64,000 bases of DNA from an uncultured Muribaculaceae bacterium (GTDB lineage: Bacteria > Bacteroidota > Bacteroidia > Bacteroidales > UBA932): positions 361 through 64,360 of the forward strand of contig CAZNDD010000001.1 in NCBI GenBank assembly GCA_964571735.1, in the 5' to 3' direction. The position numbers and the translations under genes were made by a program. Below are positions 44,429 to 64,000 of this stretch, piece by piece. Positions within the stretch are counted from its first letter, which is position 1; every line of letters begins with the position of its first letter. The notes below the pieces were generated by a model that did no database searches, had not been told where the DNA came from, and was given only the letters and a program-made list of their open reading frames with translations.

Positions 44429-45334
44429 ATGAACAGACTTGCTATGATACTTCTTTCAGGATGCATCGTATTCTGGAATGTCGAAAATTTCTTCGACCCT
44501 CTGCCTCAATCTGACAATGCTTCCGAATTGGAATTTACAGCCGACGGGGTCAAACATTGGACTACTTCGCGCATGAGGAAGAAAGCTATGAGCATATCCA
44601 AACTCATATTATCCCTCTCCGACTCTGCACTCCAGCCGCCTCAAATGGTAGCTCTTGCCGAAGTGGAAAATGAACATTGCCTCAAAACTCTCATTTACGG
44701 CACTCCCCTGCGTAAATTCGGCTACCGATACCTGCATTTCGACTCCCACGACCCAAGAGGAATCGACTGCGCCTTGCTTTACAGAGGTCCGAAGCCAATC
44801 AGAAGCCGTGCAATCCCGCTCAAAGACAGTTTAGGAGCGATTATACCGACCCGCGACATACTCGTGGCAGAATGGGACTCCGTAGCCGTTTTAGTATGCC
44901 ACCTACCCTCTAAAAGAGGTTCGAGCGAAGAAGCGCAAAGTCGCAGAATACTCGCATTGAATACTCTTCGAGATATATGTGATTCTCTTTCGGGCAAAAC
45001 TACCATAGTCATAGGAGATTTCAACGATACGCGCTCCGCCCTATCGGATTCGCTGATGAGCCCGATGAGAGAAGTTCAATGCCCGGAAGCAGGCAGTATC
45101 AAGTTCGACGGCAGATGGGAAGCGATAGACAGGGCTTTCGTATCTGAAAATACGGATGCAGTACTCCATATAATAAACAGAAGTTTCCTCTGCACAGAAG
45201 ACAAAAAATACGGAGGAGTCAAACCCCTCCGTACATATCTTGGACCGCGTTATATAGGCGGTACAAGCGACCACCTTCCGGTGATGCTCAATTATTCGAC
45301 TTTACGGGCACCGTCAGACACAACCACATTATAA
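44429..45334 (+). CDS. Endonuclease/exonuclease/phosphatase (EEP) family protein
   Basis: WNVENFF near the N-terminus, GDFND and SDHLPV motifs. Start placed at ATG 44429 (MNRLAMILLSGC...). Confidence 0.8.
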   Translation: MNRLAMILLSGCIVFWNVENFFDPLPQSDNASELEFTADGVKHWTTSRMRKKAMSISKLILSLSDSALQPPQMVALAEVENEHCLKTLIYGTPLRKFGYRYLHFDSHDPRGIDCALLYRGPKPIRSRAIPLKDSLGAIIPTRDILVAEWDSVAVLVCHLPSKRGSSEEAQSRRILALNTLRDICDSLSGKTTIVIGDFNDTRSALSDSLMSPMREVQCPEAGSIKFDGRWEAIDRAFVSENTDAVLHIINRSFLCTEDKKYGGVKPLRTYLGPRYIGGTSDHLPVMLNYSTLRAPSDTTTL

Positions 45335-46443
45335 ATCTTGGGTTCATGTCCGAAACGCTCAGTAAAGTCAGCCGCCACGACCTCAATGAAGGCGTTGTAT
45401 AACTCCGACTTTACAAGGTTGATGGTACAGCCTCCGAAACCTCCGCCCATTACGCGTGAACCCGTGACGCCCATCTTGCGAGCAGACGCATTGAGGAAAT
45501 CAAGTTCTTCGCAACTGACTTCATAGAGACGGCTGAGCCCGAAATGAGTCTGATACATCATCTCACCTGCAGTCACATAATCCTCTCTCTCAAGAGCATC
45601 GCAGAAATCCAAAACCCGCTGGACTTCACCAATGACATATTCGGCACGCAGGAAATCCTCCTCGGGAATCTCAGTCCTTACCTCCTCAAGCCATACTCTC
45701 TTGGCATCGCTGAGGAACTCAACCTCGGGATGATTCTTACGGATTGCCGCGCAGGCATTTTCACATGAGGCGCGACGCTTGTTGTAAGCTGAAGATGCCA
45801 GCTCGTGCTTGACGCATGAATCTATCAAAACAAGCTTATAACCATGAGCTTCAGGGTCAAATGGGAAATATTTATACTCCAAAGTCTTGCAGTTGAGACG
45901 GATGAGGCAGCCTTTCTTACCGAAGCAGGAAGCGAATTGGTCCATAATACCGCAATTCACTCCGCAGTAATTATGCTCCGTGCTCTGTCCTATCTTGGCA
46001 AGTTCAAAAAGGTCTATACCGTTGGAGTTAAGATCGTTAATAGCGTAAGCAAAACAACTTTCGAGTGCTGCGGATGAAGAAAGACCTGCTCCGAGAGGTA
46101 CATCCCCTGCAAACACGGCATCGAATCCTGCAACCTTTCCACCACGCTTGATAGTCTCGCGGCATACTCCGAAGACATAGCGCGCCCACTGCTGTTCGGG
46201 CTTATCCTCTTCGTTCAGACCGAACGAAGTCTGCTCGTCATAGTCTACAGAATAGAGATTAACCTTATCAGTGCCATTGAGTTTAATTTGGGCCATAATA
46301 CCCTTGTCAATAGCTCCAGGAAACACATATCCACCGTTGTAATCAGTGTGTTCGCCAATAAGGTTTACTCGTCCGGCACTGGCATACAAAGACCCGCCTT
46401 CACCAAAAAGACTTTTGAATTTGTCTTGGATTCTTTCTTTCAT
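45292..46443 (-). CDS. galK: Galactokinase
   Basis: 383 aa with GRVNLIGEHTDYNGG and PLGAGLSSSAA (GHMP kinase) motifs. Confidence 0.96.
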   Translation of the reverse strand: MKERIQDKFKSLFGEGGSLYASAGRVNLIGEHTDYNGGYVFPGAIDKGIMAQIKLNGTDKVNLYSVDYDEQTSFGLNEEDKPEQQWARYVFGVCRETIKRGGKVAGFDAVFAGDVPLGAGLSSSAALESCFAYAINDLNSNGIDLFELAKIGQSTEHNYCGVNCGIMDQFASCFGKKGCLIRLNCKTLEYKYFPFDPEAHGYKLVLIDSCVKHELASSAYNKRRASCENACAAIRKNHPEVEFLSDAKRVWLEEVRTEIPEEDFLRAEYVIGEVQRVLDFCDALEREDYVTAGEMMYQTHFGLSRLYEVSCEELDFLNASARKMGVTGSRVMGGGFGGCTINLVKSELYNAFIEVVAADFTERFGHEPKIYNVVVSDGARKVE

Positions 46444-46499
46444 ATCAGATGATATCGTTAATAGTTCTGTGTAATTAGTTGCTTTGGTTATAAACCGGA

Positions 46500-46507
46500 C
46501 AAATATA
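46500..46507 (-). promoter_or_regulatory. Candidate -7 promoter box (TATATTTG) for galK
   Basis: The reverse strand matches TAnnTTTG, about 57 nt upstream of ATG 46443. Confidence 0.4.
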
Positions 46508-46579
46508 ACAAGAAGCTACCAAAATTAATATTCAAAGCGAGTTTATTTAGTTTTTTAGGCATTTTTTGCCTTGAATTAC

Positions 46580-46615
46580 AAAAAAGGACCGACAGCGGAA
46601 TCCCGCCATCGGCCC
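46580..46615 (-). terminator. Rho-independent terminator candidate after the ppiD-like gene
   Basis: Reverse strand GGGCCGATGGCGG-gatt-CCGCTGTCGGTCC (10 of 13 bp) followed by TTTTTTG. Confidence 0.55.
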
Positions 46616-46640
46616 TGATTATATAGTGAAGATGTAAAGT

Positions 46641-48719
46641 TTAGAAATAACGTGCTCTGTTATCCTTTACCTTGGCATCCTGCATCATCACGGGGATAAT
46701 CATCTGTGATGAATACTGTGCTTTCTGGTTTTCGTAACCCTTGGCGTCATCCTCGGTGTAGAAGCTGCCTACATCCTTACGGAGGAGTTTGAAGACGCAG
46801 ACTGAGCTACGGCCTTCCACGACGCCAGTCTGACCCACCTCGCTGCGGAGTATACCACCGAGAAGAGCAGGCTCAACGACACCCGCGCCCATAGGTGAGA
46901 AGCTGATGTCCTTGCGGCTGGTTACGTTGCTACCATACTTCTCTGCCACTGCCTCAAGTGTAGGGTTAGAAGCAAGATACTCGGCAACCTCTGCTGTCAT
47001 CTTGGCATTGCGCTTGGCGGTGTAGAGAGTGTTCTGAATCATAGGGGCAAGCTCCTTGACGGGAGTATAGCCCTCCTTGCGAACCTCCTTAACTGCTGCA
47101 ATGAAGAAGTAATTGTTGTTGACGGTGATGATACCGGAAGCCTTGCCCTTCTTGGCATCGAAAATCCAACGGGTAAGTTCCTTGGCACCATCCACTGCAC
47201 CATATGTAGAAGTGCTCTCAAGCACTCTGTTCTGCTTGTGTGAGTAGACGGAGAGGGAATCAACGGCCTTGAGATAACCCTCATAGCTTCCACCGGTAAG
47301 GGTTGCGAACTTATTGGCCTGGTTGTAATAATTGTTGAATGTCTCCTTGCTGGGGACAACAGACTTTTCAAGAACTGCCACCTGCTTCTTAGCAACAGGA
47401 CGGGAAGTCTTAGTCACGACCACCACATGCTCGCCATAAGAAGTCTTGAGAGTGAAAGGAACACCAACCTTGGCAGTAATCACAGACTCGAAGCCGGGAA
47501 TCATATAGCTCTGGGTGAGCCAACCGATATTTCCGAGCTGACCGTCGGCAGCTGAACCCTGATCTGCAGAGAACTCTGCTGCAAGCTCAGCGAAACGGGC
47601 AGGATACCTTCTCACTACGGAAGCAATGCTATCAGCACGATGCTTGCTGTCATTACCCTGAAGGAGAATATGCTTGACATACACTGAATCAGGCACGTTT
47701 GCAGACTTGATCACACGTGCAGCGAAGAAGCTGTCGCCATCCTTGTACACGGGAGAAACGCCATTGGCGGAAGAGAATGCAAAATTGTCCACATCGGCAG
47801 AAACAGTTGCAAGCTCACCCTTCTTATACCACCACTCGGTGTAAGGACGGTCTGAATTGCGGAGCAAGAAAGCCTTGAGGTTGTCAGACTCGGCGAAATC
47901 ACCAAGCACGTCATGGATGCCCTTCTCTGCAGCAGCCACATCAGAATCAGAAGGCTTCACTTCGAAGAGTACATACTCGATATCACGGCTCGCATTCTGA
48001 CGATAGTCCTCCTTATGAGCATTGTAGTAGCTCTTAATCTCAGAAGAAGAGACCTCGATGGTAGTGTCGCGTGTATAAGGATAAGGAACATTGACAAGTT
48101 CGATATCAGCAGTGGTATTGCCCTCTGCAACTGCCTGAGCAAGAGTAAGCGGGCTCTCTATTGCACTGTATGCGAAGAGAGAAGAATACTTGGTATAGAA
48201 CTGCTGTGTGCGGATGGTCTGCTTGAGATAATCCCAATAGAGAGAAAGATTGGCATCGCTATCCGCAGCTGCATTGATCTCACGCACTCTATCGACTGAG
48301 AAAGTACCGTTTTCAGCTGCGAAAAGAGGATTCTGGGAGATAATGGGGCTAATGTGATTACCGGCGATAAGATCTGCAACTTCAGCATCGCTGACTTTGA
48401 TACCGGCTGCGTCGCAGTTCTTGAAGAACATATATCTGTCCATCATAGACTGCCATGCGGCATTGCGAATCTGCTGCTGTGCCTGCTCGTTCTGAGCGGA
48501 GGTACCAGTGGTAATCTCGTTAATTGTAGTGTACTTGTTGACTTCTGAAGCGAAATCCTCGTATGAAATAGAGGTTCCAGCAATCTCACCCACATTCTGG
48601 GGCTTGCTGAAGATGTTCATCAAGTCGTCGATAGGGGCGATAAAGTACAAGAGCGAAAGCGCAATGATGACGGAAATTGCAATTCCGAACTTCGTGCGCA
48701 ACTTTTGAAGTACTGCCAT
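46641..48719 (-). CDS. Periplasmic chaperone / peptidylprolyl isomerase (PpiD/SurA-like)
   Basis: 692 aa with an N-terminal anchor MAVLQKLRTKFGIAISVIIALSLLYFI typical of PpiD, and a parvulin-like segment (VKHILLQGNDSKHRADS...). Confidence 0.75.
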   Translation of the reverse strand: MAVLQKLRTKFGIAISVIIALSLLYFIAPIDDLMNIFSKPQNVGEIAGTSISYEDFASEVNKYTTINEITTGTSAQNEQAQQQIRNAAWQSMMDRYMFFKNCDAAGIKVSDAEVADLIAGNHISPIISQNPLFAAENGTFSVDRVREINAAADSDANLSLYWDYLKQTIRTQQFYTKYSSLFAYSAIESPLTLAQAVAEGNTTADIELVNVPYPYTRDTTIEVSSSEIKSYYNAHKEDYRQNASRDIEYVLFEVKPSDSDVAAAEKGIHDVLGDFAESDNLKAFLLRNSDRPYTEWWYKKGELATVSADVDNFAFSSANGVSPVYKDGDSFFAARVIKSANVPDSVYVKHILLQGNDSKHRADSIASVVRRYPARFAELAAEFSADQGSAADGQLGNIGWLTQSYMIPGFESVITAKVGVPFTLKTSYGEHVVVVTKTSRPVAKKQVAVLEKSVVPSKETFNNYYNQANKFATLTGGSYEGYLKAVDSLSVYSHKQNRVLESTSTYGAVDGAKELTRWIFDAKKGKASGIITVNNNYFFIAAVKEVRKEGYTPVKELAPMIQNTLYTAKRNAKMTAEVAEYLASNPTLEAVAEKYGSNVTSRKDISFSPMGAGVVEPALLGGILRSEVGQTGVVEGRSSVCVFKLLRKDVGSFYTEDDAKGYENQKAQYSSQMIIPVMMQDAKVKDNRARYF

Positions 48720-48806
48720 ATTGTGTTAAATCTTTAGTTATAATCTGTGTGTAAACCGTTGTGAGCCATTAAACAGCAAACGGGCCACGAATTTAGTAAT
48801 TTTTAC

Positions 48807-49442
48807 TCACTTGAGCAACGGGCCTATGAAGTTGACAGAATCAATCTTAAATTGAGAGTCGTCCGAAGAGTATGCATAACTATCAAAAGGCTTGAGCAAA
48901 ATCGAATTGCGTGCCCTGTCATCAGAGCGCATGCCGTAACCCTGCATCATGCCATCCTCAGAATAGAGTTTGACATACGCCTGAGTATAAATCTCAGACT
49001 TTTTCCTATCCCAATAGAGAGTATCCGTCTCCATAGTCTCGCGCTTGATAAGATTGGAGATAATCACGCCTTCAGTGGCTTCCCAAAGCTCTCCTGAGGC
49101 ATTTTTCCCTGCCGATATATGCTTCGCATAGCCTGCCGTAATAATAGTCTCCAACAAACCTTCGGGAGTATATCCATACACTTCAAGCCCGTAGGGGAAC
49201 AACTCAAAATCAAGCGTGTCGGTGTCGTATTTCAGCATAGCTTCCGCCTCCATACGCTGCTTTATCACCCCGTCTTCGGTACTTACTGCAAACATTTCGT
49301 TCACTATTTGTACCGGAGTCTGGGAGAGGTCTATACTGTCGGCTTCCTTGAGCTTGCCTTTGCCACAGGAAGACAAAGCGACAAGAGCAACCGCATAAAA
49401 TACGGTTGCTCTCAGAGCTTTTATCTTGACTCTACGATTCAA
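48807..49442 (-). CDS. lptC: LptC-like LPS export periplasmic protein
   Basis: 211 aa with lipobox ALVALSSCGKG. Size and beta-jellyroll-like sequence fit, and it sits upstream of the ppiD-like gene as in other Bacteroidales. Similarity was judged by eye only. Confidence 0.5.
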   Translation of the reverse strand: MNRRVKIKALRATVFYAVALVALSSCGKGKLKEADSIDLSQTPVQIVNEMFAVSTEDGVIKQRMEAEAMLKYDTDTLDFELFPYGLEVYGYTPEGLLETIITAGYAKHISAGKNASGELWEATEGVIISNLIKRETMETDTLYWDRKKSEIYTQAYVKLYSEDGMMQGYGMRSDDRARNSILLKPFDSYAYSSDDSQFKIDSVNFIGPLLK

Positions 49443-49444
49443 GT

Positions 49445-50788
49445 TTACTGCTGGGTCTTGACGGTAGTCTCAGCGTGGAAACCACCGCAATTCACATTGT
49501 AGACATCACCTGCCTTGACGTCGTACATGAAGGCGTCGGCTGCGGTAGGATAGTACTGACGATACTGGGCAATCAACTTATTGGCATCGGCTGCGATGTT
49601 GCTGTCAGCGGCCTTTGCTCTCTCAAGATAATCCACTGCTACCCAATAAGGAGCGCGGACTGCTATCTCATTGCCTTCGCAACGCACACCGCCCCAGATA
49701 GTAGCAAGAAGCATATAAGCCTTACCCTTGAGTTCGTTGTTACTTGTAAGGGAAACGGCCTTGCGGGCAATGCCTTCAGCTTTGGCGGCACGGGATGACT
49801 TGTAGCAGTACACCGCAAGTTCGTAGCTGTATTCAGCATCCTCCTCAACACCGGACTCTTCGCTGGCTATGGCCTCCTCGAGATATTTGATAGCCGTATC
49901 CACTTCACCGCGCTGAGAATAAAGCTGATAGAGCATCTTAGCGGTTGCGGGTGAAGGATTAGAGTTGTAGACAACAGTAGAAGCTTTGACAAAAAGGTCA
50001 TTATCAAGGCAATCCTCTGCAGAAGACATGATTCTCATCACCTTGGTGGCAAACTCCACATCATCGGGATTGGCATCGAAACGAGGGCCATAGAGGTCGA
50101 TAATCTTGTCGCACTCGGCAAGTTTGCTGGATACAAAGAGGTTCTCGAGATCATCACGGACCTTGTCGTTGCTCTCGCGCTCGGTATCGTTCTTGGGAGT
50201 AGCCTGGGCAAGCAAATCTGAGTTGCGCTCATAGACCTCGATTACTTCTTCCTCACCTATGCGTCCCACTTTGCAAAGTGAGATGGCAGCATTGAGGTTA
50301 AAAAGATAGAGGTTTGCCTTGGTGGCTGCGCCATTGGCTTCGATGATTGAATTAAGCTCATTATAAAGCCTCATATCATCATCCTTGAGATAGTTACAGA
50401 GGTCAAGACCCTTGTTGTTGCGAGCTGTGACAGCATAACGGGGATAGTTCTCAATACGCACGTCATGGATCATCATCAAAGAATCCACGAGCTGCTGCTT
50501 GTAGATAGGGTTGTTGCCGTTTTTGCTGATGAGCTTACGCACAAGGAAAGTACCGTCCACGAGCATGGTCTGGTTAGCCGTAGGAGGGCAAACCTTGAAA
50601 GCCTCACGCCAGTTACGGGTAGCATCGTCGTAGCTCTTCTGTTTGTAATACTCTTTGTAGTAAGACAGATAGCGCTTGCAATTGGTGCTGTCCGGTCCAT
50701 ACTTGCTTTGTGCAGAAAGCTGTGTTGCATTCATCGAAAATGCCAACACAGCGAGGGCTGCAATGAGGATACTGCTTTGCTTTTTCAT
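49445..50788 (-). CDS. Tetratricopeptide-repeat protein, secreted, function unknown
   Basis: Start placed at the internal ATG 50788, giving signal peptide MKKQSSILIAALAVLAFSMNATQLSAQ. Several TPR-like helical pairs (AIKYLEEAIA, KAEGIARKAVSL, YWVAVDYLERAKA). Confidence 0.7.
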   Translation of the reverse strand: MKKQSSILIAALAVLAFSMNATQLSAQSKYGPDSTNCKRYLSYYKEYYKQKSYDDATRNWREAFKVCPPTANQTMLVDGTFLVRKLISKNGNNPIYKQQLVDSLMMIHDVRIENYPRYAVTARNNKGLDLCNYLKDDDMRLYNELNSIIEANGAATKANLYLFNLNAAISLCKVGRIGEEEVIEVYERNSDLLAQATPKNDTERESNDKVRDDLENLFVSSKLAECDKIIDLYGPRFDANPDDVEFATKVMRIMSSAEDCLDNDLFVKASTVVYNSNPSPATAKMLYQLYSQRGEVDTAIKYLEEAIASEESGVEEDAEYSYELAVYCYKSSRAAKAEGIARKAVSLTSNNELKGKAYMLLATIWGGVRCEGNEIAVRAPYWVAVDYLERAKAADSNIAADANKLIAQYRQYYPTAADAFMYDVKAGDVYNVNCGGFHAETTVKTQQ

Positions 50789-50807
50789 ATTGTTATTTTT
50801 GTATTTA

Positions 50808-52136
50808 TTATTCGTAACGACGCTGCTGGAACCATATATCAAACAGATTGATACCCAAAGAGAAATTTACATAAGTTTCTTCAATGAGATTATCCTTAAG
50901 CGAACCTCTCTTACCCAACTCCATACCGAGAGTAAGACCATTGCTCCAGCGGAATACGGGAAGCGTAGCTCCCAAAGTGATACCGCGTGAATAGATGTCG
51001 TGTCCAGCTACGCTGAAATACTCTTTATTGTAATAAACTCCAGCCCTATAAGCTATGAGTTTGTGGTAGTAGCGTATGTCCGAGGGATTGGGAATGTACT
51101 CAACACCTGCCCTTATAGACTGCGCCACAGTACTTCTAAAATCTCCTCCTACGGCATCCACGGCAAATCCGCTTACATTTTCAAATCCGCTCCCGCCCCA
51201 GTCGGCACGCGTATAATCGAGCGAAGCTCTGAATTTATTGCCATAGGCAAGGCTTATACCTATCCCGGCCTCTCCGGCAAGATAAACTGGAGAAGTGGTT
51301 ACTCCAATGGTATCTATATGTGAGTCAGTGTACTCTCCACTCACCGAACTTGCTTCTATGTAACCATGCAAATTACTCTTGAGCGTATAGACGGCACCAA
51401 CGCCAATAGTGAGTTTGTCACCTATAGGCTGCTCATACTGTAACCCGAACTTCGCCGAAGCTGCACTGAGCGACATGTCAGTAGTCTTGGACAAGGCGAG
51501 TGCAGCCTTATCCTCGATGGACTGAGTATATTTCCTTTTGATGTTTCCGAAGTAGTAGATCCCCTCTACACCCACCGAAACCTTGTCGAAAAGTTCCGCT
51601 CCTACAGTACCGAATACCTGATATATGCTTCCTTGACCGGTGTAAGCGTGTGCCACATTGCCGAGAGTAGCGAGTGTGGAAGGATCGGTTTCGTAATATC
51701 CGTAACTATAGCCCGTAGAAGAATACGGCTTGATGCCTACCATAGCGGAAAGATCTGCCGCATTGGAGTAGAACAACGGGAATGAAATAACGAAATCGTT
51801 GATATTGAATATATTGTTGGCAGAGCTGCGTCCTGACTGTTTAAGTGTCTTATTATTCTCGTAAACCGAGAAATCAGACATAAACGCAAGAGTATCTCGC
51901 GCAGTAACTGCCGCAGGATTAAGCAGATTAATATAACGATGATTACGCGAAGCTATACCCGCACCTCCCATTGTCATATTGTATGCAGATCCGCCACCAA
52001 ACAACTGTCCGGCTCCAAAAACGGAATAAGGAGTGTAAGCGGAATAAGAGCCGCCTTCCTCCGCATGCAACGGAGTCAGAGCCAAAAGTGCAATGGTTGC
52101 AATAATCAGTCTGTGTGCTTTAATTGTCATAATCAA
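50808..52136 (-). CDS. Outer-membrane beta-barrel protein, function unknown
   Basis: 442 aa with signal peptide ...IIATIALLALTPLHAEE and N-terminal YTPYSVFGAGQLFGGGSAYNMTMGGAGIA, then about 16+ alternating amphipathic strands. Confidence 0.7.
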   Translation of the reverse strand: MIMTIKAHRLIIATIALLALTPLHAEEGGSYSAYTPYSVFGAGQLFGGGSAYNMTMGGAGIASRNHRYINLLNPAAVTARDTLAFMSDFSVYENNKTLKQSGRSSANNIFNINDFVISFPLFYSNAADLSAMVGIKPYSSTGYSYGYYETDPSTLATLGNVAHAYTGQGSIYQVFGTVGAELFDKVSVGVEGIYYFGNIKRKYTQSIEDKAALALSKTTDMSLSAASAKFGLQYEQPIGDKLTIGVGAVYTLKSNLHGYIEASSVSGEYTDSHIDTIGVTTSPVYLAGEAGIGISLAYGNKFRASLDYTRADWGGSGFENVSGFAVDAVGGDFRSTVAQSIRAGVEYIPNPSDIRYYHKLIAYRAGVYYNKEYFSVAGHDIYSRGITLGATLPVFRWSNGLTLGMELGKRGSLKDNLIEETYVNFSLGINLFDIWFQQRRYE

Positions 52137-52842
52137 GGGAAATTTCTGACAGTCCCATCAAAACCATATTAGGCACCACGAAAACCGATTTCGCGGTTTG
52201 AGCCGCAAAATACTCCGCATCACCGCCCGTGAAGACTGCAATGCTGCCAGGAGCTGACGCCATATACCCGTCTATTTCAAACATTATGCCCCCTATAACA
52301 CCCGCTTCTATGCTCGCGGCAAGGGAACGGCCGGGAGAGTAAGGCTTCTCTTTTGGAGTATTAACCAGAGGCAATGCCCTCGCATAGCGGTTGAGAGCCT
52401 TGAAGCGCGTCCGACATCCGAGTGAGATATTACCCCCAAGATAAGAGCCGTCTGCATCTATGAAATCAGCCGACAAAGTCGTACCTATGTCAAACAATAT
52501 GAACTTCTTGTCTTTAAAGAGTTTGCGTGCTGCTATAATGGAGGCAGCCCTGTCGGGAGACAGATACTCCGGAAGCGAATATGCCCTCAAAATTGAAGTA
52601 TGAGCCGAATCCAAAAGCACTAGCCTATCGCACCTGCTTTCTATCTCTCTTATATCTTCTTCAGGCAAATCACGCACAGAAGACAGCACTATCACTTTGG
52701 GATGCTGCTCCCCTATTAGGGTCTTGAGCAGAAAACCGTGAAGTTTCTCACCCTGGTAACGAATCGTCTTGCCGAGGGTACTACCTTCGGACCATGCCGC
52801 CTTAAGTGCGGTATTGCCTATTTCGACAAGAAGATTGGACAT
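52120..52842 (-). CDS. coaX: Type III pantothenate kinase
   Basis: 240 aa with LLVEIGNTALKAA (phosphate-1 motif) and DIGTTLSADF. Confidence 0.9.
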   Translation of the reverse strand: MSNLLVEIGNTALKAAWSEGSTLGKTIRYQGEKLHGFLLKTLIGEQHPKVIVLSSVRDLPEEDIREIESRCDRLVLLDSAHTSILRAYSLPEYLSPDRAASIIAARKLFKDKKFILFDIGTTLSADFIDADGSYLGGNISLGCRTRFKALNRYARALPLVNTPKEKPYSPGRSLAASIEAGVIGGIMFEIDGYMASAPGSIAVFTGGDAEYFAAQTAKSVFVVPNMVLMGLSEISLDYDN

Positions 52843-52858
52843 TACTTTATGCGAGCCG

Positions 52859-52866
52859 CAAATTTA
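52859..52866 (-). promoter_or_regulatory. Candidate -7 promoter box (TAAATTTG) for the coaX operon
   Basis: The reverse strand matches TAnnTTTG, 17 nt upstream of ATG 52842. Confidence 0.35.
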
Positions 52867-52969
52867 ATAAATACTATGCTTTTTTAAAAATTTAATGATT
52901 CGAGCAGAAAACATGCTTAAGAAGCTGCCTTGATTTATGAAAATTCATATTCGATGCAGAGTCAGATAG

Positions 52970-55900
52970 CTACTGCAGTTTTTTAAGAAGTTCCAACGAA
53001 TCACCTATGGATTTTATGCCGCGTGCCACTATCCTCGGTTTACCGTTGTCTTCTTTGTATGTGAGAGAAGGTACGGACCCCACCTTTGAGATGACATTAT
53101 AGAAAATGTCGCTCTTGTAGTATGGAGATAGAGGATTGGACGGGAAGAAGCATACGAAAAGATCTTTGATGATGATTTTCTCAAATCCGAGTCTCGCCCC
53201 AAGATTTCTTACCTTTACTACATTGAAGAGATTTTCAAGTTCTTCCGGACACTCTCCGAAACGGTCCGTGAGTTGATGGTGCATATTGTCTATCTCTGCA
53301 TCGGAAGTCATGGCATCGAGTTGCTTATAGATACGGATTTTTTCCGCCGTGATATCTATGTAGCTGTCAGGGATATATGCAGGTCTATCAGTCTCTATAC
53401 TGCATTCGCTTACAGCAAGGGCTCGAGAAGAGCCGCTGATGCTCTCGCCGGTCTCTATGCCAAGTTCCTCCATAGCTTCGGTAAGTATCTTCTGATAAGT
53501 CTCGTAACCCATGTCGCTGATAAATCCGCTCTGCTCCGCTCCGAGCATATTGCCGGCACCGCGTATGTCGAGGTCCTGCATGGCTATATTGAATCCGCTT
53601 CCGAGATCGGAGAATTCCTCGATGGCCTTGAGTCTCTTTCTCGCTTCGTCTGTAAGAGTCACGAGCGGAGGTACTATCAGATAGCAGAAAGCCTTGCGAT
53701 TGGAGCGTCCCACACGTCCCCTGAGCTGATGCAGGTCGCTCAGACCAATGTTCTGCGCCATATTGACGATTATGGTATTGGCATTTGAAATATCCAATCC
53801 ATTCTCGATGATGGTAGTACAAAGCAGAAGATCGTAGTCTCCCCTGACGAAATCCAGCATCTTGTCTTCAGTCTCCTTCGCAGACATCTGACCATGCACC
53901 GTACATATTTTCATGTCAGGCACCAGCCTCTGCAGTATGCCCTCAATACCAGGAAGTTGCTCTACATTGTTGTGTACGAAAAACACCTGTCCGCCGCGGT
54001 TGAGTTCATACTCTATGATGGACTTGATTTCTTTCTCCTCAAAGAGTATTATTTCAGTCTGAATGGGAATGCGATTGGCAGGAGGAGTTGCTATGATACT
54101 CAAATCCCTCGCACCGAGAAGCGAAAACTGCAAGGTACGGGGTATTGGAGTCGCTGACAGCGTAAGAGTATCCACGCCTTCTCTCAGTTTACGCAACTTC
54201 TCCTTGGCTGCGACTCCGAACTTCTGCTCCTCATCTATTATGAGAAGTCCGAAGTCTTTGAATTCAAACGCCTCGGAAAGTATCTTGTGAGTGCCTATCA
54301 GAATATCGATTTTGCCTGCCTTGAGTCTCTGCTTGATATCGTTTAACTCTTTGGTGGTACGCAGTCTGCTCACATAATCCACGCTTACGGGGAAATCCTT
54401 GAGACGGGAAGCGAAGGTGTTGTAATGCTGGAGAGCAAGTATTGTAGTAGGTACGAGCACTGCGACCTGTTTTCCGTCAGTTGCAGCCTTGAAAGCAGCA
54501 CGCACAGCGATTTCAGTCTTGCCGAAACCTACATCTCCACAGATCAGACGATCCATGGGGCATCCGGCCTCCATGTCTGACTTGACAGCGCGGGTCGCTT
54601 CCTCCTGATCGGGAGTGTCGTCATACATGAATGAAGATTCAAGTTCGCTCTGTAGATATGAATCAGCCGAGAATGCAAAACCTTTGGAAGCTTTGCGCTT
54701 GGCATAAAGACGGATAAGATCCTTGGCTATGTCCTTAACCCTCTTCTTGGCGCTGCTCTTGAGAGCAGACCACATCTTGGAGCCGAGTTTGTTGATGCGC
54801 GGGGCTTCCCCGTCCTTAGGTCTGAAACGGGATATCTTGTTGAGTGCATGCACGGAGACAAACACAACGTCCCCGTCCTTATAGGTGAGTTTGACGGCCT
54901 CCTTCATCTGACCCTTGTCATCGCGAAGCCTTACCAAACCTCCGAATATACCCACGCCGTGGTCTATATGCACTATGTAGTCACCAACATTGAAGGATGC
55001 GAGATCATTGAGCGTAAGTTGCTCAGTCTTCTCAACGCTACGCCTGATCCTGACCCTATGGAAGCGGTCAAATATCTCATGGTCAGTGTAATGACAGACT
55101 TTGTCCTGCTCGTCTATGAAGCCGTTGTGTATATTCTTGCCGGGCAGAAATTCAGGAAGAGGGCAGCTTTCTTCTATGAGAATGTGTTCAAGCCTGTCGG
55201 TCTGAGTCTTTTTTTCTCCGTATATGAGCACTTTATAGCCATGCTCTATCCTGCTTCTGACATCGGAAGTGAAAAACTCGAAATTCTTCCCGAAAACCGG
55301 CTGAGGCGAAAGTTCAAACTGCACTACATCCTCAACATCATTGTCAAGAGGCAATTCAAGCCATACTTTACGGAAGCCTCCAGTCAAAGAGAAAAACTCC
55401 TTGTCCTTATACATATCAGAGGAGTCGAGCCAGAGAAGCGTATCTGAAGGAAAAAGCTCAAATACGCTCCGCATAGGTACTGACTCTTCGGATTCGCACA
55501 GCACTGAAGATATTACCTGTACAGAATCCACTTCAGAAGTGGACAACTGGGTATTGCAGTTGAATATATGTATATGCTCTATCTCATCTCCCCAGAAAGA
55601 TATGCGGTAAGCCTCATTGTCGGCATACGAGAATAAATCTATTATACTGCCTCTGACAGCAAATTGTCCCGGGGACGAAACGAAGTCTACCCTCTCAAAG
55701 CCAAGCTCTGCAAGCCTGTTTATAAGCGAATCATAGGAGAACTCTTCGCCTTTGTTCAGAGTGAATCTGGACTGTTCCACCACTTCCCCACTCGGTACGA
55801 GTTCCTCGAGCGCCTCCGGATAAGTGACAATGACTGTCAACTCCCCTGCCTTATGGGAAAGAATCTTGTCCACTGCGGAAGTGCGCTGTACGTCAAGGGA

Positions 55901-56167
55901 AGACTTATAGTTGCTTCTCTCTACGCCTGTACCCAAGGCAGGAAGGTAGAATACCCTATCCCCCTCTATGAGATTGTAAAGGTCGGAAGCACAATATTGG
56001 GCAGCTTCTTCATTTGGAAGAATCACTATATGAAGCCCTTCCTTGGCGCAATCCGCAAGCACGAACCACCTCGCGGACAAGAAGAGAGAGCGGCAATATA
56101 TGTCTTGCCTGCCCTTTTCGGATATAAGCTTTTTTAAAGCCTCTACAGATGTTGAATTCACCCTCAT
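52970..56167 (-). CDS. mfd: Transcription-repair coupling factor
   Basis: 1065 aa with CGDVGFGKTE (Walker A), IIDEEQKFGV (DEEQ box) and a UvrB-homology N-terminal region. Confidence 0.96.
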   Translation of the reverse strand: MRVNSTSVEALKKLISEKGRQDIYCRSLFLSARWFVLADCAKEGLHIVILPNEEAAQYCASDLYNLIEGDRVFYLPALGTGVERSNYKSSLDVQRTSAVDKILSHKAGELTVIVTYPEALEELVPSGEVVEQSRFTLNKGEEFSYDSLINRLAELGFERVDFVSSPGQFAVRGSIIDLFSYADNEAYRISFWGDEIEHIHIFNCNTQLSTSEVDSVQVISSVLCESEESVPMRSVFELFPSDTLLWLDSSDMYKDKEFFSLTGGFRKVWLELPLDNDVEDVVQFELSPQPVFGKNFEFFTSDVRSRIEHGYKVLIYGEKKTQTDRLEHILIEESCPLPEFLPGKNIHNGFIDEQDKVCHYTDHEIFDRFHRVRIRRSVEKTEQLTLNDLASFNVGDYIVHIDHGVGIFGGLVRLRDDKGQMKEAVKLTYKDGDVVFVSVHALNKISRFRPKDGEAPRINKLGSKMWSALKSSAKKRVKDIAKDLIRLYAKRKASKGFAFSADSYLQSELESSFMYDDTPDQEEATRAVKSDMEAGCPMDRLICGDVGFGKTEIAVRAAFKAATDGKQVAVLVPTTILALQHYNTFASRLKDFPVSVDYVSRLRTTKELNDIKQRLKAGKIDILIGTHKILSEAFEFKDFGLLIIDEEQKFGVAAKEKLRKLREGVDTLTLSATPIPRTLQFSLLGARDLSIIATPPANRIPIQTEIILFEEKEIKSIIEYELNRGGQVFFVHNNVEQLPGIEGILQRLVPDMKICTVHGQMSAKETEDKMLDFVRGDYDLLLCTTIIENGLDISNANTIIVNMAQNIGLSDLHQLRGRVGRSNRKAFCYLIVPPLVTLTDEARKRLKAIEEFSDLGSGFNIAMQDLDIRGAGNMLGAEQSGFISDMGYETYQKILTEAMEELGIETGESISGSSRALAVSECSIETDRPAYIPDSYIDITAEKIRIYKQLDAMTSDAEIDNMHHQLTDRFGECPEELENLFNVVKVRNLGARLGFEKIIIKDLFVCFFPSNPLSPYYKSDIFYNVISKVGSVPSLTYKEDNGKPRIVARGIKSIGDSLELLKKLQ

Positions 56168-56171
56168 TTTC

Positions 56172-56332
56172 TGTGGAAAACCCTGTGGAAAACCCTGTTA
56201 ATAACTCGTGGAAAAGATCAAACTCGAAGTTATCCACAATCTTTACCAAAGTTATCCACAGTTAATCAAAAACTCATTGCATTTATACATCATTAATACT
56301 GAAAGAGATATGGAGTTATCCACATTTCCACA
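56172..56332. promoter_or_regulatory. Cluster of seven DnaA-box motifs (three perfect TTATCCACA); candidate oriC core or DnaA-regulated divergent promoter region
   Basis: Perfect TTATCCACA at 56230-56238, 56252-56260 and 56316-56324. ATTTCCACA at 56324-56332. Opposite orientation: TGTGGAAAA at 56172-56180 and 56184-56192, CGTGGAAAA at 56207-56215. Confidence 0.7.
56247..56254 (-). promoter_or_regulatory. Candidate -7 promoter box (TAACTTTG) for mfd, overlapping a DnaA box
   Basis: The reverse strand matches TAnnTTTG, about 80 nt upstream of ATG 56167. Confidence 0.3.
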
Positions 56333-56334
56333 GC

Positions 56335-56390
56335 TTAAACATAAACACCAAAATATAAAGAAATAAGATTATATTTGTAGACTTTTAGCA
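56335..56390. other. AT-rich tract (45 of 56 nt A/T) adjacent to the DnaA boxes; possible DNA unwinding element
   Basis: Counted directly: ttaaacataaacaccaaaatataaagaaataagattatatttgtagacttttagca. Confidence 0.4.
56370..56377 (+). promoter_or_regulatory. Candidate -7 promoter box (TATATTTG) for ruvB
   Basis: Matches TAnnTTTG, 26 nt upstream of ATG 56404. Confidence 0.4.
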
Positions 56391-56403
56391 AACCGCCCGT
56401 ATT

Positions 56404-57432
56404 ATGCCAGATTTCGACCCGCGCACGGACGCGAGGGACAAAGATAAGGATTTGGATGGAATTATCCGCCCGCAGGACCTGGGTGCTTTTACCGGTCAGC
56501 AGGAGATAGTTTCCAACCTTCATATTTATATCCAGGCAGCAAAGTTGAGAGGCGAAAGTCTTGACCATACTCTGTTTCACGGGCCTCCTGGACTCGGTAA
56601 GACAACTTTGGCGCATATCATTGCCAATGAGATGGGCGTGGGCTTGAAGATAACCTCGGGGCCGGTGCTGGACAAGCCCGGTGATCTTGCGGGGCTTCTG
56701 ACCTCGTTGGATACGGGGGATGTGCTTTTTATAGATGAGATTCATCGTCTTTCTCCAGAGGTGGAGGAGTATCTCTACTCCGCGATGGAGGATTTCGTGA
56801 TAGATATAATGATAGACAAGGGTCCCGGAGCGAGATCCGTGCGTATCAACCTCAATCCCTTTACCCTCGTGGGTGCCACCACCCGCAGCGGTCTGCTGAC
56901 GGCTCCTTTGCGTGCCCGTTTCGGCATTACCTGCGCTTTGGAGTACTACGATGTAGAGGATTTGAGGCGCATAGTTGAGAGAAGTGCCGATATACTCAAG
57001 GTACAGATTGACTCCGACGCCTCGCGTGAGATAGCTCTCCGCAGCCGCGGTACGCCTCGTATTGCCAATTCCTTACTCAGAAGGGTGAGGGATTTCGCTC
57101 AGGTTATGGGAGACGGCAAGATCGATCTTAAGATTGCCTCGTTTGCATTGGACAAACTCAGGATAGATACCCGTGGATTGGATGCCATCGACAACAAGAT
57201 ACTCTCGACTATCATCAACACCTTCGGAGGGGGGCCAGTGGGAGCCAATACCATAGCTACCGCAATTGGTGAGGATCAGGGTACATTTGAAGAGGTATAT
57301 GAGCCTTATCTTATAAAGGAAGGTTTCATAGTGCGTACCCAGCGGGGGAGAATAGCTACCGATTTTGCTTACAAGCATCTTGGCATCAGTCATAGCGGCG
57401 GTGAAGCAGTGGAGGAGGGGAGTCTTTTCTAA
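56404..57432 (+). CDS. ruvB: Holliday junction branch migration DNA helicase RuvB
   Basis: 342 aa with [22 protein letters not shown] and [15 protein letters not shown] motifs. Confidence 0.97.
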
Positions 57433-57482: not shown

Positions 57483-59429
57483 ATGGCAGATAAACTCATT
57501 TCAAAAATTCCTGACGGACCGCTTTCCGAAAAATGGACGAAGCGCAAGTCGGAAATCCATCTTGTGAGTCCCAACAACCGCCGCAAGCTCGAAGTCATCG
57601 TGGTCGGAACCGGCCTCGGAGGAGCTTCTGCAGCAGCTACTCTCGGCGAATTGGGCTATAATGTCAAGGTGTTCTGCATCAGTGATTCCCCCCGTCGTGC
57701 CCACTCTATCGCGGCACAGGGTGGTATTAATGCAGCCAAGAACTACCAGAACGACAACGACTCGGTCTACCGCCTCTTCTATGACACCATCAAAGGAGGT
57801 GACTATCGCAGCCGCGAGGCCAATGTTTATCGCCTTGCCGAGGTTAGCGCAGCTATCATCGACCAGTGCGTAGCCCAAGGCGTTCCTTTTGCCCGTGAAT
57901 ACGGCGGTTACCTTGCCAACCGTTCATTTGGTGGCGTGCAGGTGAGTCGTACTTTCTACGCCAGGGGTCAAACCGGTCAGCAGCTCCTTCTCGGTGCTTA
58001 CGCTGCCCTCAACCGTCAGATTGCCGCAGGTACGGTCCAGAGCTATCCTCGCTATGAGATGCTCGACCTCGTGCTTGTAAATGGTCAAGCCAAGGGTATC
58101 ATCGCCCGCAACCTCGTGACTGGTCAGCTTGAGAGATTCGGCGCACACGCCGTGATTATCGCTACAGGTGGTTACGGAAATGCTTACTTCCTTTCGACCA
58201 ACGCTATGAACAGCAACGGTTCAGCTGCCGTTCAGTGCTACCGCAAGGGCGCATATTTTGCCAACCCCTGCTTCGCTCAGATTCACCCTACATGTATCCC
58301 CGTACACGGTGAGCAGCAGTGCAAACTGACACTTATGTCAGAGTCTCTGCGTAACGACGGCCGTATCTGGGTGCCTAAGAAACTCGAGGATGTGGAGAGA
58401 CTCCGCCGCCGTGAGATCAAGGCTTCTCAGATTCCCGAAGAGGATAGGGATTACTATCTCGAGCGCAGATACCCTGCATTCGGTAACCTCGTCCCTCGTG
58501 ACGTGGCTTCACGTGCCGCTAAGGAGAGATGCGATGCAGGTTTCGGTGTAAATGAGACCGGTAAGGCCGTGTTCCTTGACTTCGCAGATGCCATCAACAG
58601 ACTTGGTCATCAGAGAGTGGCGGAGCGTTACGGTAACCTCTTCGATATGTACGAGAAAATCACAGCTTCATCCCCTTGGGAGGAGCCTATGATGATTTAT
58701 CCTGCTATCCACTACACCATGGGCGGTATCTGGGTTGACTATGACCTTCAGACCACCATCCCTGGTCTGTATGCCATCGGTGAGGCTAACTTCTCCGACC
58801 ACGGCGGAAACCGTCTCGGTGCTTCCGCTCTCATGCAGGGTCTTGCAGACGGTTACTTCGTAGTGCCTATCACTATCGCGGACTACCTCTCCAACAAGTT
58901 CTCCGAGCCTAAGACAGATGTCAATTCCAAGGAATTCGTCGAGGCCGAAAAGGCTGTGCAGCAGAGGATTGACAAACTCTTTGCTATCAATGGTACTGAG
59001 ACAGTCGATTCTATCCACAAGAGACTCGGACACATCATGTGGGAGTATGTCGGTATGGCCCGTGACGAGGAAGGCCTCAAGAAGGCTATCGTTGAGATTA
59101 AGGAACTCAAAGAAGAGTTCTATAAGACCGTCAAGGTGCCCGGAGGACAGTACGAGTTCAACCAGGAGCTTGAAAAGGCCCTCAGACTTGAAGATTTCTT
59201 CGAAATCGGCTTGTTGATGGCTAATGATGCCCTTAACCGTAAGGAGTCTTGCGGTGGACACTTCCGCGTGGAAAGCCAGACCGAAGAGGGTGAGGCAAAG
59301 CGTGACGACAAGAATTACATGTATGTCGCAGCTTGGGAGTACAAGGGTGAGAACGAAGAGCCCGAACTCCACAAAGAGCCTCTTAACTACGAGTTTATCG
59401 AGGTCAAGACCAGAAACTACAAAGACTAG
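57483..59429 (+). CDS. frdA: Fumarate reductase / succinate dehydrogenase flavoprotein subunit
   Basis: 648 aa with the FAD dinucleotide fold [23 protein letters not shown] (His for covalent FAD) and a C-terminal [10 protein letters not shown]. Confidence 0.95.
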
Positions 59430-59435
59430 TCAGCA

Positions 59436-60215
59436 ATGGAATTTAATCTTAAGATATGGCGTCAGAAAAACGCCAAGGCAAAAGGACATTTCGAGACCTA
59501 TCATATCAGCGGCATCGAAGAGGATGCTTCATTTCTCGAAATGCTTGATATCCTGAACGAACAGCTTATCCGTCAGGGAGTTGATCCCGTGGCTGTGGAG
59601 AGAGGCTGCCAGAGCAGCGGTCCTGTGTCTTTCGACCACGACTGCCGTGAGGGCATCTGCGGTGCCTGCTCGCTTTACATCGACGGCCGTGCCCATGGTC
59701 CGGACGATCATGTGACTACATGTCAGCTCTTTATGCGTCACTTCAAGGACGGAGCTACCATTACCGTAGAGCCTTTCCGCAGCGCAGCTTTCCCTGTAAT
59801 CAAAGACCTTGTAGTAGACCGTAGAGCTTTCGACAAGATTCTTCAGGCAGGCGGATTCGTCTCAGTCCGTACCGGCTCTGCTCAGGATGCCAATACTCTC
59901 CTTATCCCTCACGATCAGGCTGAAGAGAGCATGGATGCAGCAGCTTGCGTCGGTTGCGGTGCTTGCGTAGCTACCTGTAAGAACGGTTCTGCAATGCTTT
60001 TCGTTGCAGCCCGCGTCAGTTCTCTCGCTCTGCTTCCTCAGGGTCGTCCCGAGGCCAAGAAGAGAGCGGAGGCCATGGTCGCCAAGATGGACGAACTCGG
60101 ATTCGGTAACTGTACCAATACCCGTGCCTGCGAGCTTGAGTGCCCTAAGGGTATCACTGTCGCTCACATCGCCCGTCTCAATCGCGAGTTCCTCAAGGCT
60201 CATTTCTCGAACTAA
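59436..60215 (+). CDS. frdB: Fumarate reductase / succinate dehydrogenase iron-sulfur subunit
   Basis: 259 aa with three Cys clusters: [21 protein letters not shown] and [14 protein letters not shown]. Confidence 0.95.
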
Positions 60216-62621: not shown

Positions 62622-62653
62622 CGATGTATTAATGAATTTGAACCTATTTTGTA

Positions 62654-64000
62654 ATGTCTGAAATTGTTTCGGAGAATAAAAATTCCGTAGCTGAAGTAGA
62701 TGAGGATGTAGAACAGATCCATTCTGTGGGTAGAGCGAAAGGTTGGCTTGCTCTAAGTCCTCTGATTGTTTTCCTTATAATTTATTTTGTGTCTTCCGTG
62801 GTGGCGAAGGATTTTTACAAGGTTCCTATCGCTTCCGCTTTTCTTATCAGTTCCGTTTATGCTCTTTGTATATCTAAGGGGAAACTGAGTTCGAGAATTG
62901 AGACTTTTTCAAAAGGTGCAGGGGATAAGAATGTCCTGCTGATGCTATGGATATTTGTGCTTGCAGGGGCATTTGCTTCTACGGCGAAGGATATAGGGGC
63001 CATTGAGGCTACAGTTAATCTTACCCTCAAAATTTTGCCTTCGAATATGATTCTTGCGGGGCTTTTCCTTGCTTCATGTTTTATCTCGATGGCTGTCGGT
63101 ACCAGCGTAGGCACTATTGTGGCTATAGTTCCTATAGCTTCAGAACTTGCTATCCAGACGGGACTTAACTTGCCTATGATTACCGCGATTATCGTGGGTG
63201 GGGCTTTCTTCGGTGACAACCTTTCTTTTATTTCGGACACGACCATAGCTTCGACTAAAACACAGGGATGTTCGATGTCCGATAAGTTCAAGGCAAATAT
63301 TTGGATAGCGGGGCCTGCAGCCGTTATCGTGACCATTATCTACATCGTGCTTGGTGCTCAGTTGCCGACTGGATTGACGACGGAAGACGTGGAATTGGTT
63401 AAACTGATTCCTTATTTGCTTGTCATAGTACTTGCGGTGTCCGGGGTTAATGTACTTGTGGTTTTGACTCTTGGAATTGTATCTAATCTGATTATTGGCC
63501 TTGTTTGCGGCAATTTTGGTTGGATAGGATTTCTTTCTGCTATAGGTGACGGGATAGCGAGTATGGGAGACTTGATTATAGTAACTCTGCTGGCTGGCGG
63601 AATGCTTGAAGTAATCAGAAAGAACGGAGGGCTTGATTTTATTATAGAAGGATTGACTAAGACTGTCAAGGGGAAGCGTGGTGCTGGGCTATGTATTGCA
63701 TGTCTGGTATCTATAGTGAATATCTGTACGGCTAACAATACCATTGCAATCATTACATCTGGAGGTATTGCCAAGGATATTACAAAGAAGTTTTCTCTCA
63801 ATCCGGTCAAAACAGCCAGTATACTCGATACGTTCTCTTGTGTGATTCAGGGAATTATTCCTTATGGTGCGCAGATGCTTATGGCGTCGGGGTTGGCAGG
63901 TGTGTCTGCAGTTGCGATCATCCGTTATCTCTATTATCCCTTGGTTCTCGGGCTTGTTGCTATTTTGGCTATTCTGCTGGATTTCCCAAAAAAGTATTCA
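62654..64000 (+). CDS. Na+/H+ antiporter NhaC-family protein; 3' end beyond the window
   Basis: My own translation from ATG 62654 is open for 449 codons to the window end: MSEIVSENKNSVAEV...GWLALSPLIVFLIIYFVSS...GAFFGDNLSFISDTTIAST... It is polytopic with NhaC-like motifs. It is missing from the ORF track because there is no stop in the window. The listed - strand ORFs 62857-63336 and 63412-63810 are its shadows. Confidence 0.8.
   Translation, partial: MSEIVSENKNSVAEVDEDVEQIHSVGRAKGWLALSPLIVFLIIYFVSSVVAKDFYKVPIASAFLISSVYALCISKGKLSSRIETFSKGAGDKNVLLMLWIFVLAGAFASTAKDIGAIEATVNLTLKILPSNMILAGLFLASCFISMAVGTSVGTIVAIVPIASELAIQTGLNLPMITAIIVGGAFFGDNLSFISDTTIASTKTQGCSMSDKFKANIWIAGPAAVIVTIIYIVLGAQLPTGLTTEDVELVKLIPYLLVIVLAVSGVNVLVVLTLGIVSNLIIGLVCGNFGWIGFLSAIGDGIASMGDLIIVTLLAGGMLEVIRKNGGLDFIIEGLTKTVKGKRGAGLCIACLVSIVNICTANNTIAIITSGGIAKDITKKFSLNPVKTASILDTFSCVIQGIIPYGAQMLMASGLAGVSAVAIIRYLYYPLVLGLVAILAILLDFPKKYS

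Follow-up and report, generated by a model that had tools for sequence, protein, structure and literature searches.

A candidate chromosomal origin of replication in the mfd/ruvB spacer of an uncultured Bacteroidales lineage

Two divergent genes of an uncultured Bacteroidales bacterium, mfd and ruvB, are parted by a 236-bp intergenic spacer that an initial annotation had proposed as a chromosomal origin of replication (oriC) unlinked to dnaA. We analysed this spacer within a 64,000-nucleotide stretch of contig CAZNDD010000001.1 (hereafter the window, to which all coordinates refer), in a same-species contig that prolongs it to the right, and in the corresponding loci of other genomes. The proposal is supported by the polarity of a strand-composition switch, by conservation in 53 species and by a module laid out like the unwinding region of an origin.

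DnaA boxes cluster between mfd and ruvB

The spacer, bounded by divergent open reading frames, holds eight 9-mers that resemble DnaA boxes, beside predicted promoter elements and an AT-rich tract:

52970-56167, minus strand: mfd, transcription-repair coupling factor (TIGR00580, 933 bits); transcription leads away from the spacer
56168-56403, no strand assigned: whole mfd/ruvB spacer, candidate oriC, site of the best A/T and G+T skew breakpoints, with a layout kept in 53 species
56172-56180, minus strand: left-array box 1, TTTTCCACA, one mismatch (plus-strand letters TGTGGAAAA), inside the exact 12-nt tandem CTGTGGAAAACC x2
56184-56192, minus strand: left-array box 2, TTTTCCACA, one mismatch (plus-strand letters TGTGGAAAA), starting 12 nt after box 1, in the CTGTGGAAAACC tandem
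56196-56204, minus strand: left-array box 3, TTATTAACA (plus-strand letters TGTTAATAA), starting 12 nt after box 2; this variant recurs in the left arrays of relatives
56207-56215, minus strand: left-array box 4, TTTTCCACG, two mismatches (plus-strand letters CGTGGAAAA), starting 11 nt after box 3
56230-56238, plus strand: perfect box TTATCCACA, member of the repeat family AGTTATCCACA
56247-56254, minus strand: predicted mfd -7 promoter element TAACTTTG, a consensus match only
56252-56260, plus strand: perfect box TTATCCACA, 22 nt after the previous one, overlapping the predicted mfd -7 element by 3 nt
56316-56332, plus strand: fused double box TTATCCACA/ATTTCCACA sharing one base (ATTTCCACA at 56324-56332), the box pair nearest the AT-rich tract
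56335-56390, no strand assigned: AT-rich tract (45/56 A+T, 80%), candidate DNA-unwinding element (DUE), adjoining the terminal box pair
56337-56351, plus strand: period-3 element of five triplets, with conserved A at 56338, 56341, 56344, 56347 and 56350 (42 aligned spacers)
56370-56377, plus strand: predicted ruvB -7 promoter element TATATTTG, a consensus prediction, 37 nt past the double box
56404-57432, plus strand: ruvB, Holliday-junction helicase (NF000868, 496 bits); transcription leads away from the spacer

Boxes were sought as TTATCCACA with up to one mismatch and with a relaxed motif, TTWTYMACA, drawn from relatives. All seven boxes that the initial annotation had listed (three perfect copies, ATTTCCACA, two copies of TGTGGAAAA in a 12-nt tandem, and CGTGGAAAA) lie where it had placed them; its count was one short, the eighth being TGTTAATAA, which brings the left array to four boxes in register at spacings of 12, 12 and 11 nt. 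A repeat finder returned the exact tandem CTGTGGAAAACC x2 together with the three-copy family AGTTATCCACA. Outside the spacer a perfect TTATCCACA occurs once in the 64 kb, at 24522, and six of the window's seven matches to TTWTYMACA sit in the spacer. Among 200 sequences simulated with a second-order Markov model, the largest number of such matches per 250 bp was one in 185 runs, two in nine and zero in six, never more than two; the cluster is far above chance, as had been argued from its perfect boxes.

No second box cluster occurs between 53 and 57 kb or elsewhere in the window. A minus-strand tandem at 42599-42616, ATATCCACA x2, does form two abutting one-mismatch boxes, but it lies inside ychF, where it encodes V-D-I-V-D-I beside the conserved AGLV motif; we therefore set it aside as a coding coincidence rather than an origin element.

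A period-3 element follows the fused box pair

The AT-rich tract, whose A+T content we reproduce as first counted, holds the second least stable 40-bp duplex of the 64 kb: for windows starting at 56334-56350 the duplex energy lies between about -39.4 and -40.3 kcal/mol, the mean being -54.5 (standard deviation 3.9). The least stable 40-bp duplex in the window lies in the coaX/mfd spacer (52843-52969), which carries a -7-like element for coaX, CAAATTTA, on the plus strand at 52848-52855. Considered as an alternative unwinding site, that spacer was rejected, being without boxes and having an instability accounted for by the coaX promoter.

Alignment of 42 spacers, anchored on the box pair nearest ruvB, resolves the structure of the region. 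The fused pair TTATCAACAtTTcAACA is found in 42 of 54 spacers, its upstream box being the better match, and the aligned consensus reads aG-TTATCAACA-TtTcAACA, after which come [A/G]C, two positions free to vary and five triplets; an A-rich run leads on to the ruvB -7 element TATATTTG. At the periodic columns 5, 8, 11, 14 and 17, 76-90% of species have A, as against 17-69% at the intervening columns; among all column choices this period-3 pattern is the most extreme (permutation p = 0.0003). The element begins 12-13 bp after the better box. Between box and triplets the window has GCTT, and the relatives have [A/G]C followed by two unconserved positions, rather than a GC-rich spacer of 4-5 bp. 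In the window the triplets read AAC ATA AAC ACC AAA. The repeat is 5'-AWM-3' and not CTA/TTA; one sub-clade of relatives has (ATC)3-4 repeats. A reading of the tract as canonical DnaA-trios was accordingly abandoned, no register yielding CTA/TTA repeats in the window, and the period-3 element is trio-like in period and place, not in sequence.

Strand composition switches near the spacer

The initial annotation had inferred an origin-type G/C skew from four hand tallies in genes on either side. Those tallies reproduce exactly, but in raw counts of this kind the biases of coding and of replication are confounded. Over 2-kb windows, raw GC skew is weak and dominated by the coding strand; for this reason we used skews at third codon positions, modelled as a coding-strand term plus a side term, with the breakpoint placed by a likelihood scan. 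Third-position A/T skew corrected for coding strand (AT3) is +0.153 left of the spacer (95% confidence interval (CI) 0.106 to 0.203; 42 genes in both orientations) and -0.276 to its right (95% CI -0.342 to -0.213; six genes). The best AT3 breakpoint falls at 56,000-56,250 in the window (log-likelihood gain (dLL) of about 90) and at 56,000 (dLL 123) once the window is merged with L207, a same-species contig whose reverse complement adds 6.9 kb on the right and reaches about 70.9 kb; with this extension the AT3 contrast is -0.371. In the merged sequence the G+T third-position breakpoint lies at 56,250 (dLL 156); the cumulative G+T curve, centred by strand, traces a V that bottoms out at 53-56 kb. 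The plus strand is G+T-richer to the right of the spacer. Since leading strands are G+T-rich in Bacteroides-type genomes (PMC4070872, Trend IV), this excess indicates that leading strands point away from this site, the polarity of an origin rather than of a terminus.

The corresponding contrast in third-position G/C skew (GC3) is not significant in the window alone (+0.106, 95% CI -0.039 to 0.296), and becomes so with the 6.9-kb extension and its total of 15 right-hand genes (+0.186, CI 0.058 to 0.326). In both cases it shifts in the direction that the initial annotation had proposed, C-richer on the left and G-richer on the right; its best breakpoint, weighed below, falls off the spacer, and the decisive skew is that of A/T rather than G/C. 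The genes frdA and frdB (57483-60215) have GC3 skews of -0.28 and -0.33 on their coding strand, probably the codon preference of highly expressed genes.

The layout is conserved in relatives

For comparison we assembled genome loci around ruvB (±10 kb) from 80 species. In 53 of them mfd and ruvB are divergent neighbours across a spacer of 213-460 bp; in the remaining Bacteroidota and the other phyla of the set, ruvB is located elsewhere. A strict search for Escherichia coli boxes left most relatives without a perfect copy, an apparent lack of conservation that was overturned by reading the spacers and applying the relaxed motif: TTWTYMACA occurs at 11.0 per kb in 54 spacers versus 0.126 per kb in the other 994 kb, an 88-fold difference, and box positions are fixed relative to mfd and ruvB. 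The spacers share one layout, in which the boxes of most relatives are TT[A/T]TCAACA, A replacing C at position 6. Perfect TTATCCACA (CCACA) boxes are found in the window and in the two relatives closest to it (L007, L008), and several other spacers (L014, L016, L047) combine CCACA with CAACA forms, so that one protein presumably reads both.

The compositional switch recurs with the layout. Among minus-strand genes of the relatives, AT3 ranges from +0.08 to +0.30 left of the spacer, and right of it the range is -0.02 to -0.13. Subtracting left from right gives a mean of -0.25, with a negative value in 32 of 34 loci; the figure for control loci, where ruvB lies elsewhere, is -0.002. Genes within ±10 kb likewise point away from the spacer, with 290 minus-strand against 23 plus-strand genes on the left and 253 plus-strand against 106 minus-strand genes on the right. 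No such box cluster was found within ±10 kb of ruvB in other Bacteroidota. Because the loci retrieved from Bacteroidaceae and other Bacteroidota show ruvB with no mfd and no box cluster at its side, the mfd/ruvB location looks specific to this clade.

About nine relatives with spacers of 320-460 bp (L015, L018, L019, L022, L023, L026, L050, L052, L058) carry 65-170 extra bp between the module and ruvB. In these a second -7-like element, TATCTTTG, lies by the ruvB start and the older TATATTTG has decayed to TATATTTT or TATATTTA, and still the double box and the periodic A's are kept; the module therefore does not depend on how far it lies from the ruvB promoter, as one would expect of an origin more than of an operator.

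A separate feature of the spacers is the palindrome TTGATWATCAA (up to one mismatch), present in 18 of 54 and fixed about 22 nt upstream of the fused double box (shuffled spacers: mean 2.1, maximum 8). It lies about 102-119 nt upstream of the ruvB ATG in L012, L032, L035, L037, L044 and others, and at 141-194 nt in L018, L023 and L082; the window's own spacer does not contain it.

Predicted promoters within the spacer

The Bacteroidetes -7 promoter consensus is TAnnTTTG, and matches to it supply the predicted promoters of both flanking genes; the 8-mers ATATTTGT and TATATTTG occur in 44 and 43 of the 54 spacers, respectively. The overlap of the predicted mfd -7 element with a box, pointed out in the initial annotation, is borne out, and the four-box left array sits between that element and the mfd start codon. 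Boxes thus overlap or adjoin core elements, as at DnaA-regulated promoters, the promoters themselves being consensus predictions. We retain a regulatory second role on account of that overlap, which involves a perfect box, and of the ruvB -7 element situated just past the double box: DnaA at the spacer would plausibly affect the mfd and ruvB promoters as well.

Operators of the SOS response in Bacteroidetes have the forms CTAA-N5-TTAG and GGA-N5-TCC (PMC8565304). As a reason for boxes near repair genes, a LexA-like operator was discarded: CTAA-N5-TTAG is present in 0 of 54 spacers and GGA-N5-TCC in two, and the window has neither.

Flanking genes and source lineage

As first described, seven minus-strand open reading frames fill 45292-56167, and ruvB, frdA and frdB follow on the plus strand to the right, succeeded by hflX on the minus strand. 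On L207, at about 64.7-70.9 kb in window coordinates, lie ybeY, mnmG (gidA), ruvA, sufS, sufE, an Fe-S assembly gene and HPPK, all transcribed in the direction that a rightward fork would travel. The gene mnmG is a classical neighbour of origins; here mnmG and ruvA lie 9-11 kb right of the spacer (mnmG at about 9 kb, and ruvA with about 10 kb between it and ruvB). In agreement with the earlier observation that the window lacks dnaA, six-frame translations of the window contained no DnaA signature, nor did those of the 80 genome loci. The window has no tRNA genes, and the spacer has no Rfam match at E <= 1.

The exact RuvB protein is confined to short metagenome contigs, and the closest genomes, at RuvB identities of up to 90%, are metagenome-assembled rumen and gut Bacteroidales, including 'Candidatus Cryptobacteroides'. 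The lineage is carried by rumen or gut samples such as SRR22923222, SRR19576299 and SRR17221342. Strains differ some 6 kb right of the spacer (L002 8822-9950 versus L003 7873-9231, window 62642-64000): a Na+/H+ antiporter gene between TonB-like and PCC-domain genes is present in the window, L003 and L207, and some contigs are without it.

Discussion

A DnaA-box cluster, a skew switch with leading strands that appear to diverge over 71 kb of sequence, a meltable element by the terminal box, and conservation come together in one spacer. From these sequence features we infer, with a probability of roughly 0.8, that this uncultured Bacteroidales lineage has its chromosomal oriC, presumably the only one, in the mfd/ruvB spacer. 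In the mechanism that we propose, DnaA would fill two opposed arrays, the four minus-strand boxes (11-12 bp spacing) abutting mfd and the four plus-strand boxes directed towards ruvB. From the fused last plus-strand pair a DnaA oligomer would extend across the 4-nt spacer onto the period-3 element and melt the adjoining A-rich tract at 56335-56390, and forks would then depart in both directions. The same binding would probably influence the mfd and ruvB promoters embedded in the origin.

Several observations weigh against this assignment. The skew resolves the switch only to about 53-56.5 kb (~3.5 kb), mfd itself having intermediate values; the test spans 71 kb of the replicon, with only about 15 kb of same-species sequence right of the spacer. 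The best GC3 breakpoint lies at 60-62.5 kb, off the spacer, probably pulled there because frdA and frdB strongly prefer C-ending codons. Left of the spacer, 64% of coding bases are on the plus strand (34 kb of genes), head-on to replication, which weighs little because gene-strand bias is near nil in Bacteroidetes, at only 0.52-0.54 in B. thetaiotaomicron and P. gingivalis (PMC4070872). The period-3 element departs from the 3'-GAT-5' consensus of DnaA-trios. Finally, the E. coli DnaA box requires C at position 6, and most relatives, carrying TTATCAACA, break that requirement. Initiator and origin might have drifted together in this clade, the box tolerating or preferring A at position 6 (TTATCAACA) and the trio-like element having an invariant A for T, in which case DnaA could read another trinucleotide or engage the opposite strand; placement within the mfd and ruvB promoters could also couple initiation to expression. 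We consider this elaboration rather doubtful.

Might the cluster instead be a DnaA-dependent regulatory or titration site, whether an mfd/ruvB operator or an element like datA or DARS, lying near the true origin, with unwinding taking place elsewhere within a few kilobases? The box that overlaps the predicted mfd -7 element, a left array that would lie in the mfd 5' leader, and the double box that most relatives have at a constant distance, about 37 nt, upstream of the ruvB -7 element are all what such a site would show, and the ~3.5-kb resolution of the skew leaves room for it, as does the unstable duplex of the coaX/mfd spacer. Yet that spacer is boxless and its instability is explained by the coaX promoter, 53-57 kb and the rest of the 64 kb offer no other box cluster, and the ±10 kb around ruvB in other Bacteroidota is free of such clusters. 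The fused box, period-3 element and AT-rich tract together have the layout expected of an unwinding module rather than an operator, and the module is retained where extra DNA parts it from the ruvB promoter. We therefore regard a purely regulatory site as unlikely. That the repeats bind a lineage-specific protein other than DnaA, for instance a transcription factor of repair genes, with the likeness to DnaA boxes partly coincidental, would fit the relatives' consensus TT[A/T]TCAACA, with its A at position 6, and the fixed palindrome TTGATWATCAA in 18 of 54 spacers suggests that other factors may bind. It sits poorly with the perfect TTATCCACA boxes of the window, L007 and L008, with the mixture of CCACA and CAACA forms in L014, L016 and L047, with a CAACA-type second box in a classical dnaA-dnaN origin (L103) and with the near-absence of the known SOS operators (PMC8565304; 0/54 and 2/54 spacers), and it leaves the skew switch unexplained; we judge it quite improbable. 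Any change of skew sign could also mark a terminus, or the boundary of an inversion or misassembly, beside which the boxes would be incidental, and G+C content does drop at 60-64 kb. For a terminus, however, the polarity is wrong, G+T-rich strands and genes alike diverging from the spacer instead of converging; for a rearrangement or assembly breakpoint, the mfd/ruvB junction is seen on independent contigs from several samples, and junction and switch are conserved in dozens of species. This last explanation is barely credible.

An origin at the mfd/ruvB spacer would provide a well-supported replication start site for a large uncultured Bacteroidales family of gut and rumen, of use in orienting metagenome-assembled genomes (MAGs), in replichore analysis and in peak-to-trough estimates of growth rate. 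The 54 spacers would further amount to 54 aligned natural variants of one origin, varying at box position 6 and in the trio-like repeat, and hence comparative material on how DnaA recognizes double- and single-stranded origin DNA outside model organisms. The current picture of bacterial origins is left unchanged.

Comparison with known origins

In E. coli, oriC sits between gidA/mnmG and mioC. The mfd/ruvB spacer resembles it in being distal to dnaA, in having two opposed box arrays, one at helical-turn spacing, and in its flanking promoters. The left boxes read TGTGG... and the right boxes TTATCC..., with the AT-rich tract beyond the last right-hand box; the candidate DUE is downstream of a 5'-TTATCCACA-3' box, on the A-rich strand, as in the R1/DUE arrangement, and mnmG is within about 9 kb. 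Unlike E. coli oriC, the spacer is without 13-mer repeats and without a GATC cluster (it has a single GATC), no recognisable IHF site in it has been established, and the boxes next to its candidate DUE are fused, a trait of B. subtilis and H. pylori.

In those two species the fused or overlapping DUE-proximal boxes are followed by a 4-5 bp GC spacer and the 3'-GAT-5' DnaA-trios (PMC8235120), with the better box upstream, 10-13 bp from the trios (PMC8287927). The spacer shares with this basal unwinding system (BUS) the fused pair, the better box upstream, the start of a period-3 element 12-13 bp further on and the adjacent AT-rich tract. It differs in a spacer that is only weakly G/C-rich ([A/G]C NN) and in a repeat that, on the TTATC strand, reads 5'-A-W-M-3' with an invariant A, whereas classical origins have 5'-CTA-3' or 5'-TTA-3' there, with an invariant T.

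A metagenome scan for the fused double box served to establish the classical orientation empirically and to look for the module next to other genes in further Bacteroidales. The scan returned many textbook origins, mainly from other phyla, composed of TTATCCACATATCCACA, a G/C spacer and (CTA)n or (TTA)n; of 46 box-rich sites, 11 have a DnaA signature within their locus. These classical origins bear out the known orientation and phase of box and trios; their orientation from box to unwinding element is the same as in the mfd/ruvB spacer, and one of them, the dnaA-dnaN spacer L103, has TTTCAACA, a CAACA-type box, as its second box. Three members of the mfd/ruvB group were recovered (L097, L199, L203), all beside ruvB and/or mfd; on other Bacteroidales the scan gave no evidence. 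Three metagenome contigs of 25-36% G+C from unrelated organisms (L121, L129, L176) carry double boxes with A at position 6, TTATCAACATATCAACA, followed by a G/C spacer and CTA-TTA-ATA repeats; only the double box was found there, so these loci are not confirmed origins. Because TTATCAACATATCAACA-type pairs precede CTA-TTA-ATA repeats there, CAACA-type boxes may serve in otherwise classical origin modules.

DnaA also binds outside origins, at datA, DARS, the DnaA-box clusters of B. subtilis and the dnaA and nrdAB promoters. Like these sites, the spacer is a promoter-bearing intergenic region with several boxes, some overlapping promoter elements; the non-origin sites differ from it in not lying at skew switches and in being without an adjoining unwinding module.

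The nearest parallels are found within the phylum. In Bacteroidetes, oriC is commonly far from dnaA (PMC4755523), so that the absence of dnaA here is not unusual. Prevotella intermedia OMA14, for example, has an Ori-Finder oriC at 1,498,452-1,498,927 with multiple DnaA boxes at a GC-skew transition (PMC4755523), and it and the other dnaA-distal Bacteroidetes origins predicted in DoriC/Ori-Finder share with the mfd/ruvB spacer an intergenic cluster of E. coli-type boxes at a skew transition with no dnaA nearby. We found no paper in open-access text that names mfd/ruvB as an origin location. DoriC 12.0 covers RefSeq genomes, which largely exclude such MAGs, so the mfd/ruvB group is probably uncatalogued, though the kind of element is known. 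Given that dnaA-distal origins are already familiar in Bacteroidetes, a mfd/ruvB origin would be a sound but fairly ordinary find, differing from the published ones in a lineage that is uncultured and known only from metagenome assemblies; its unusual details are the A at box position 6 in most relatives and the non-consensus trio-like repeat.

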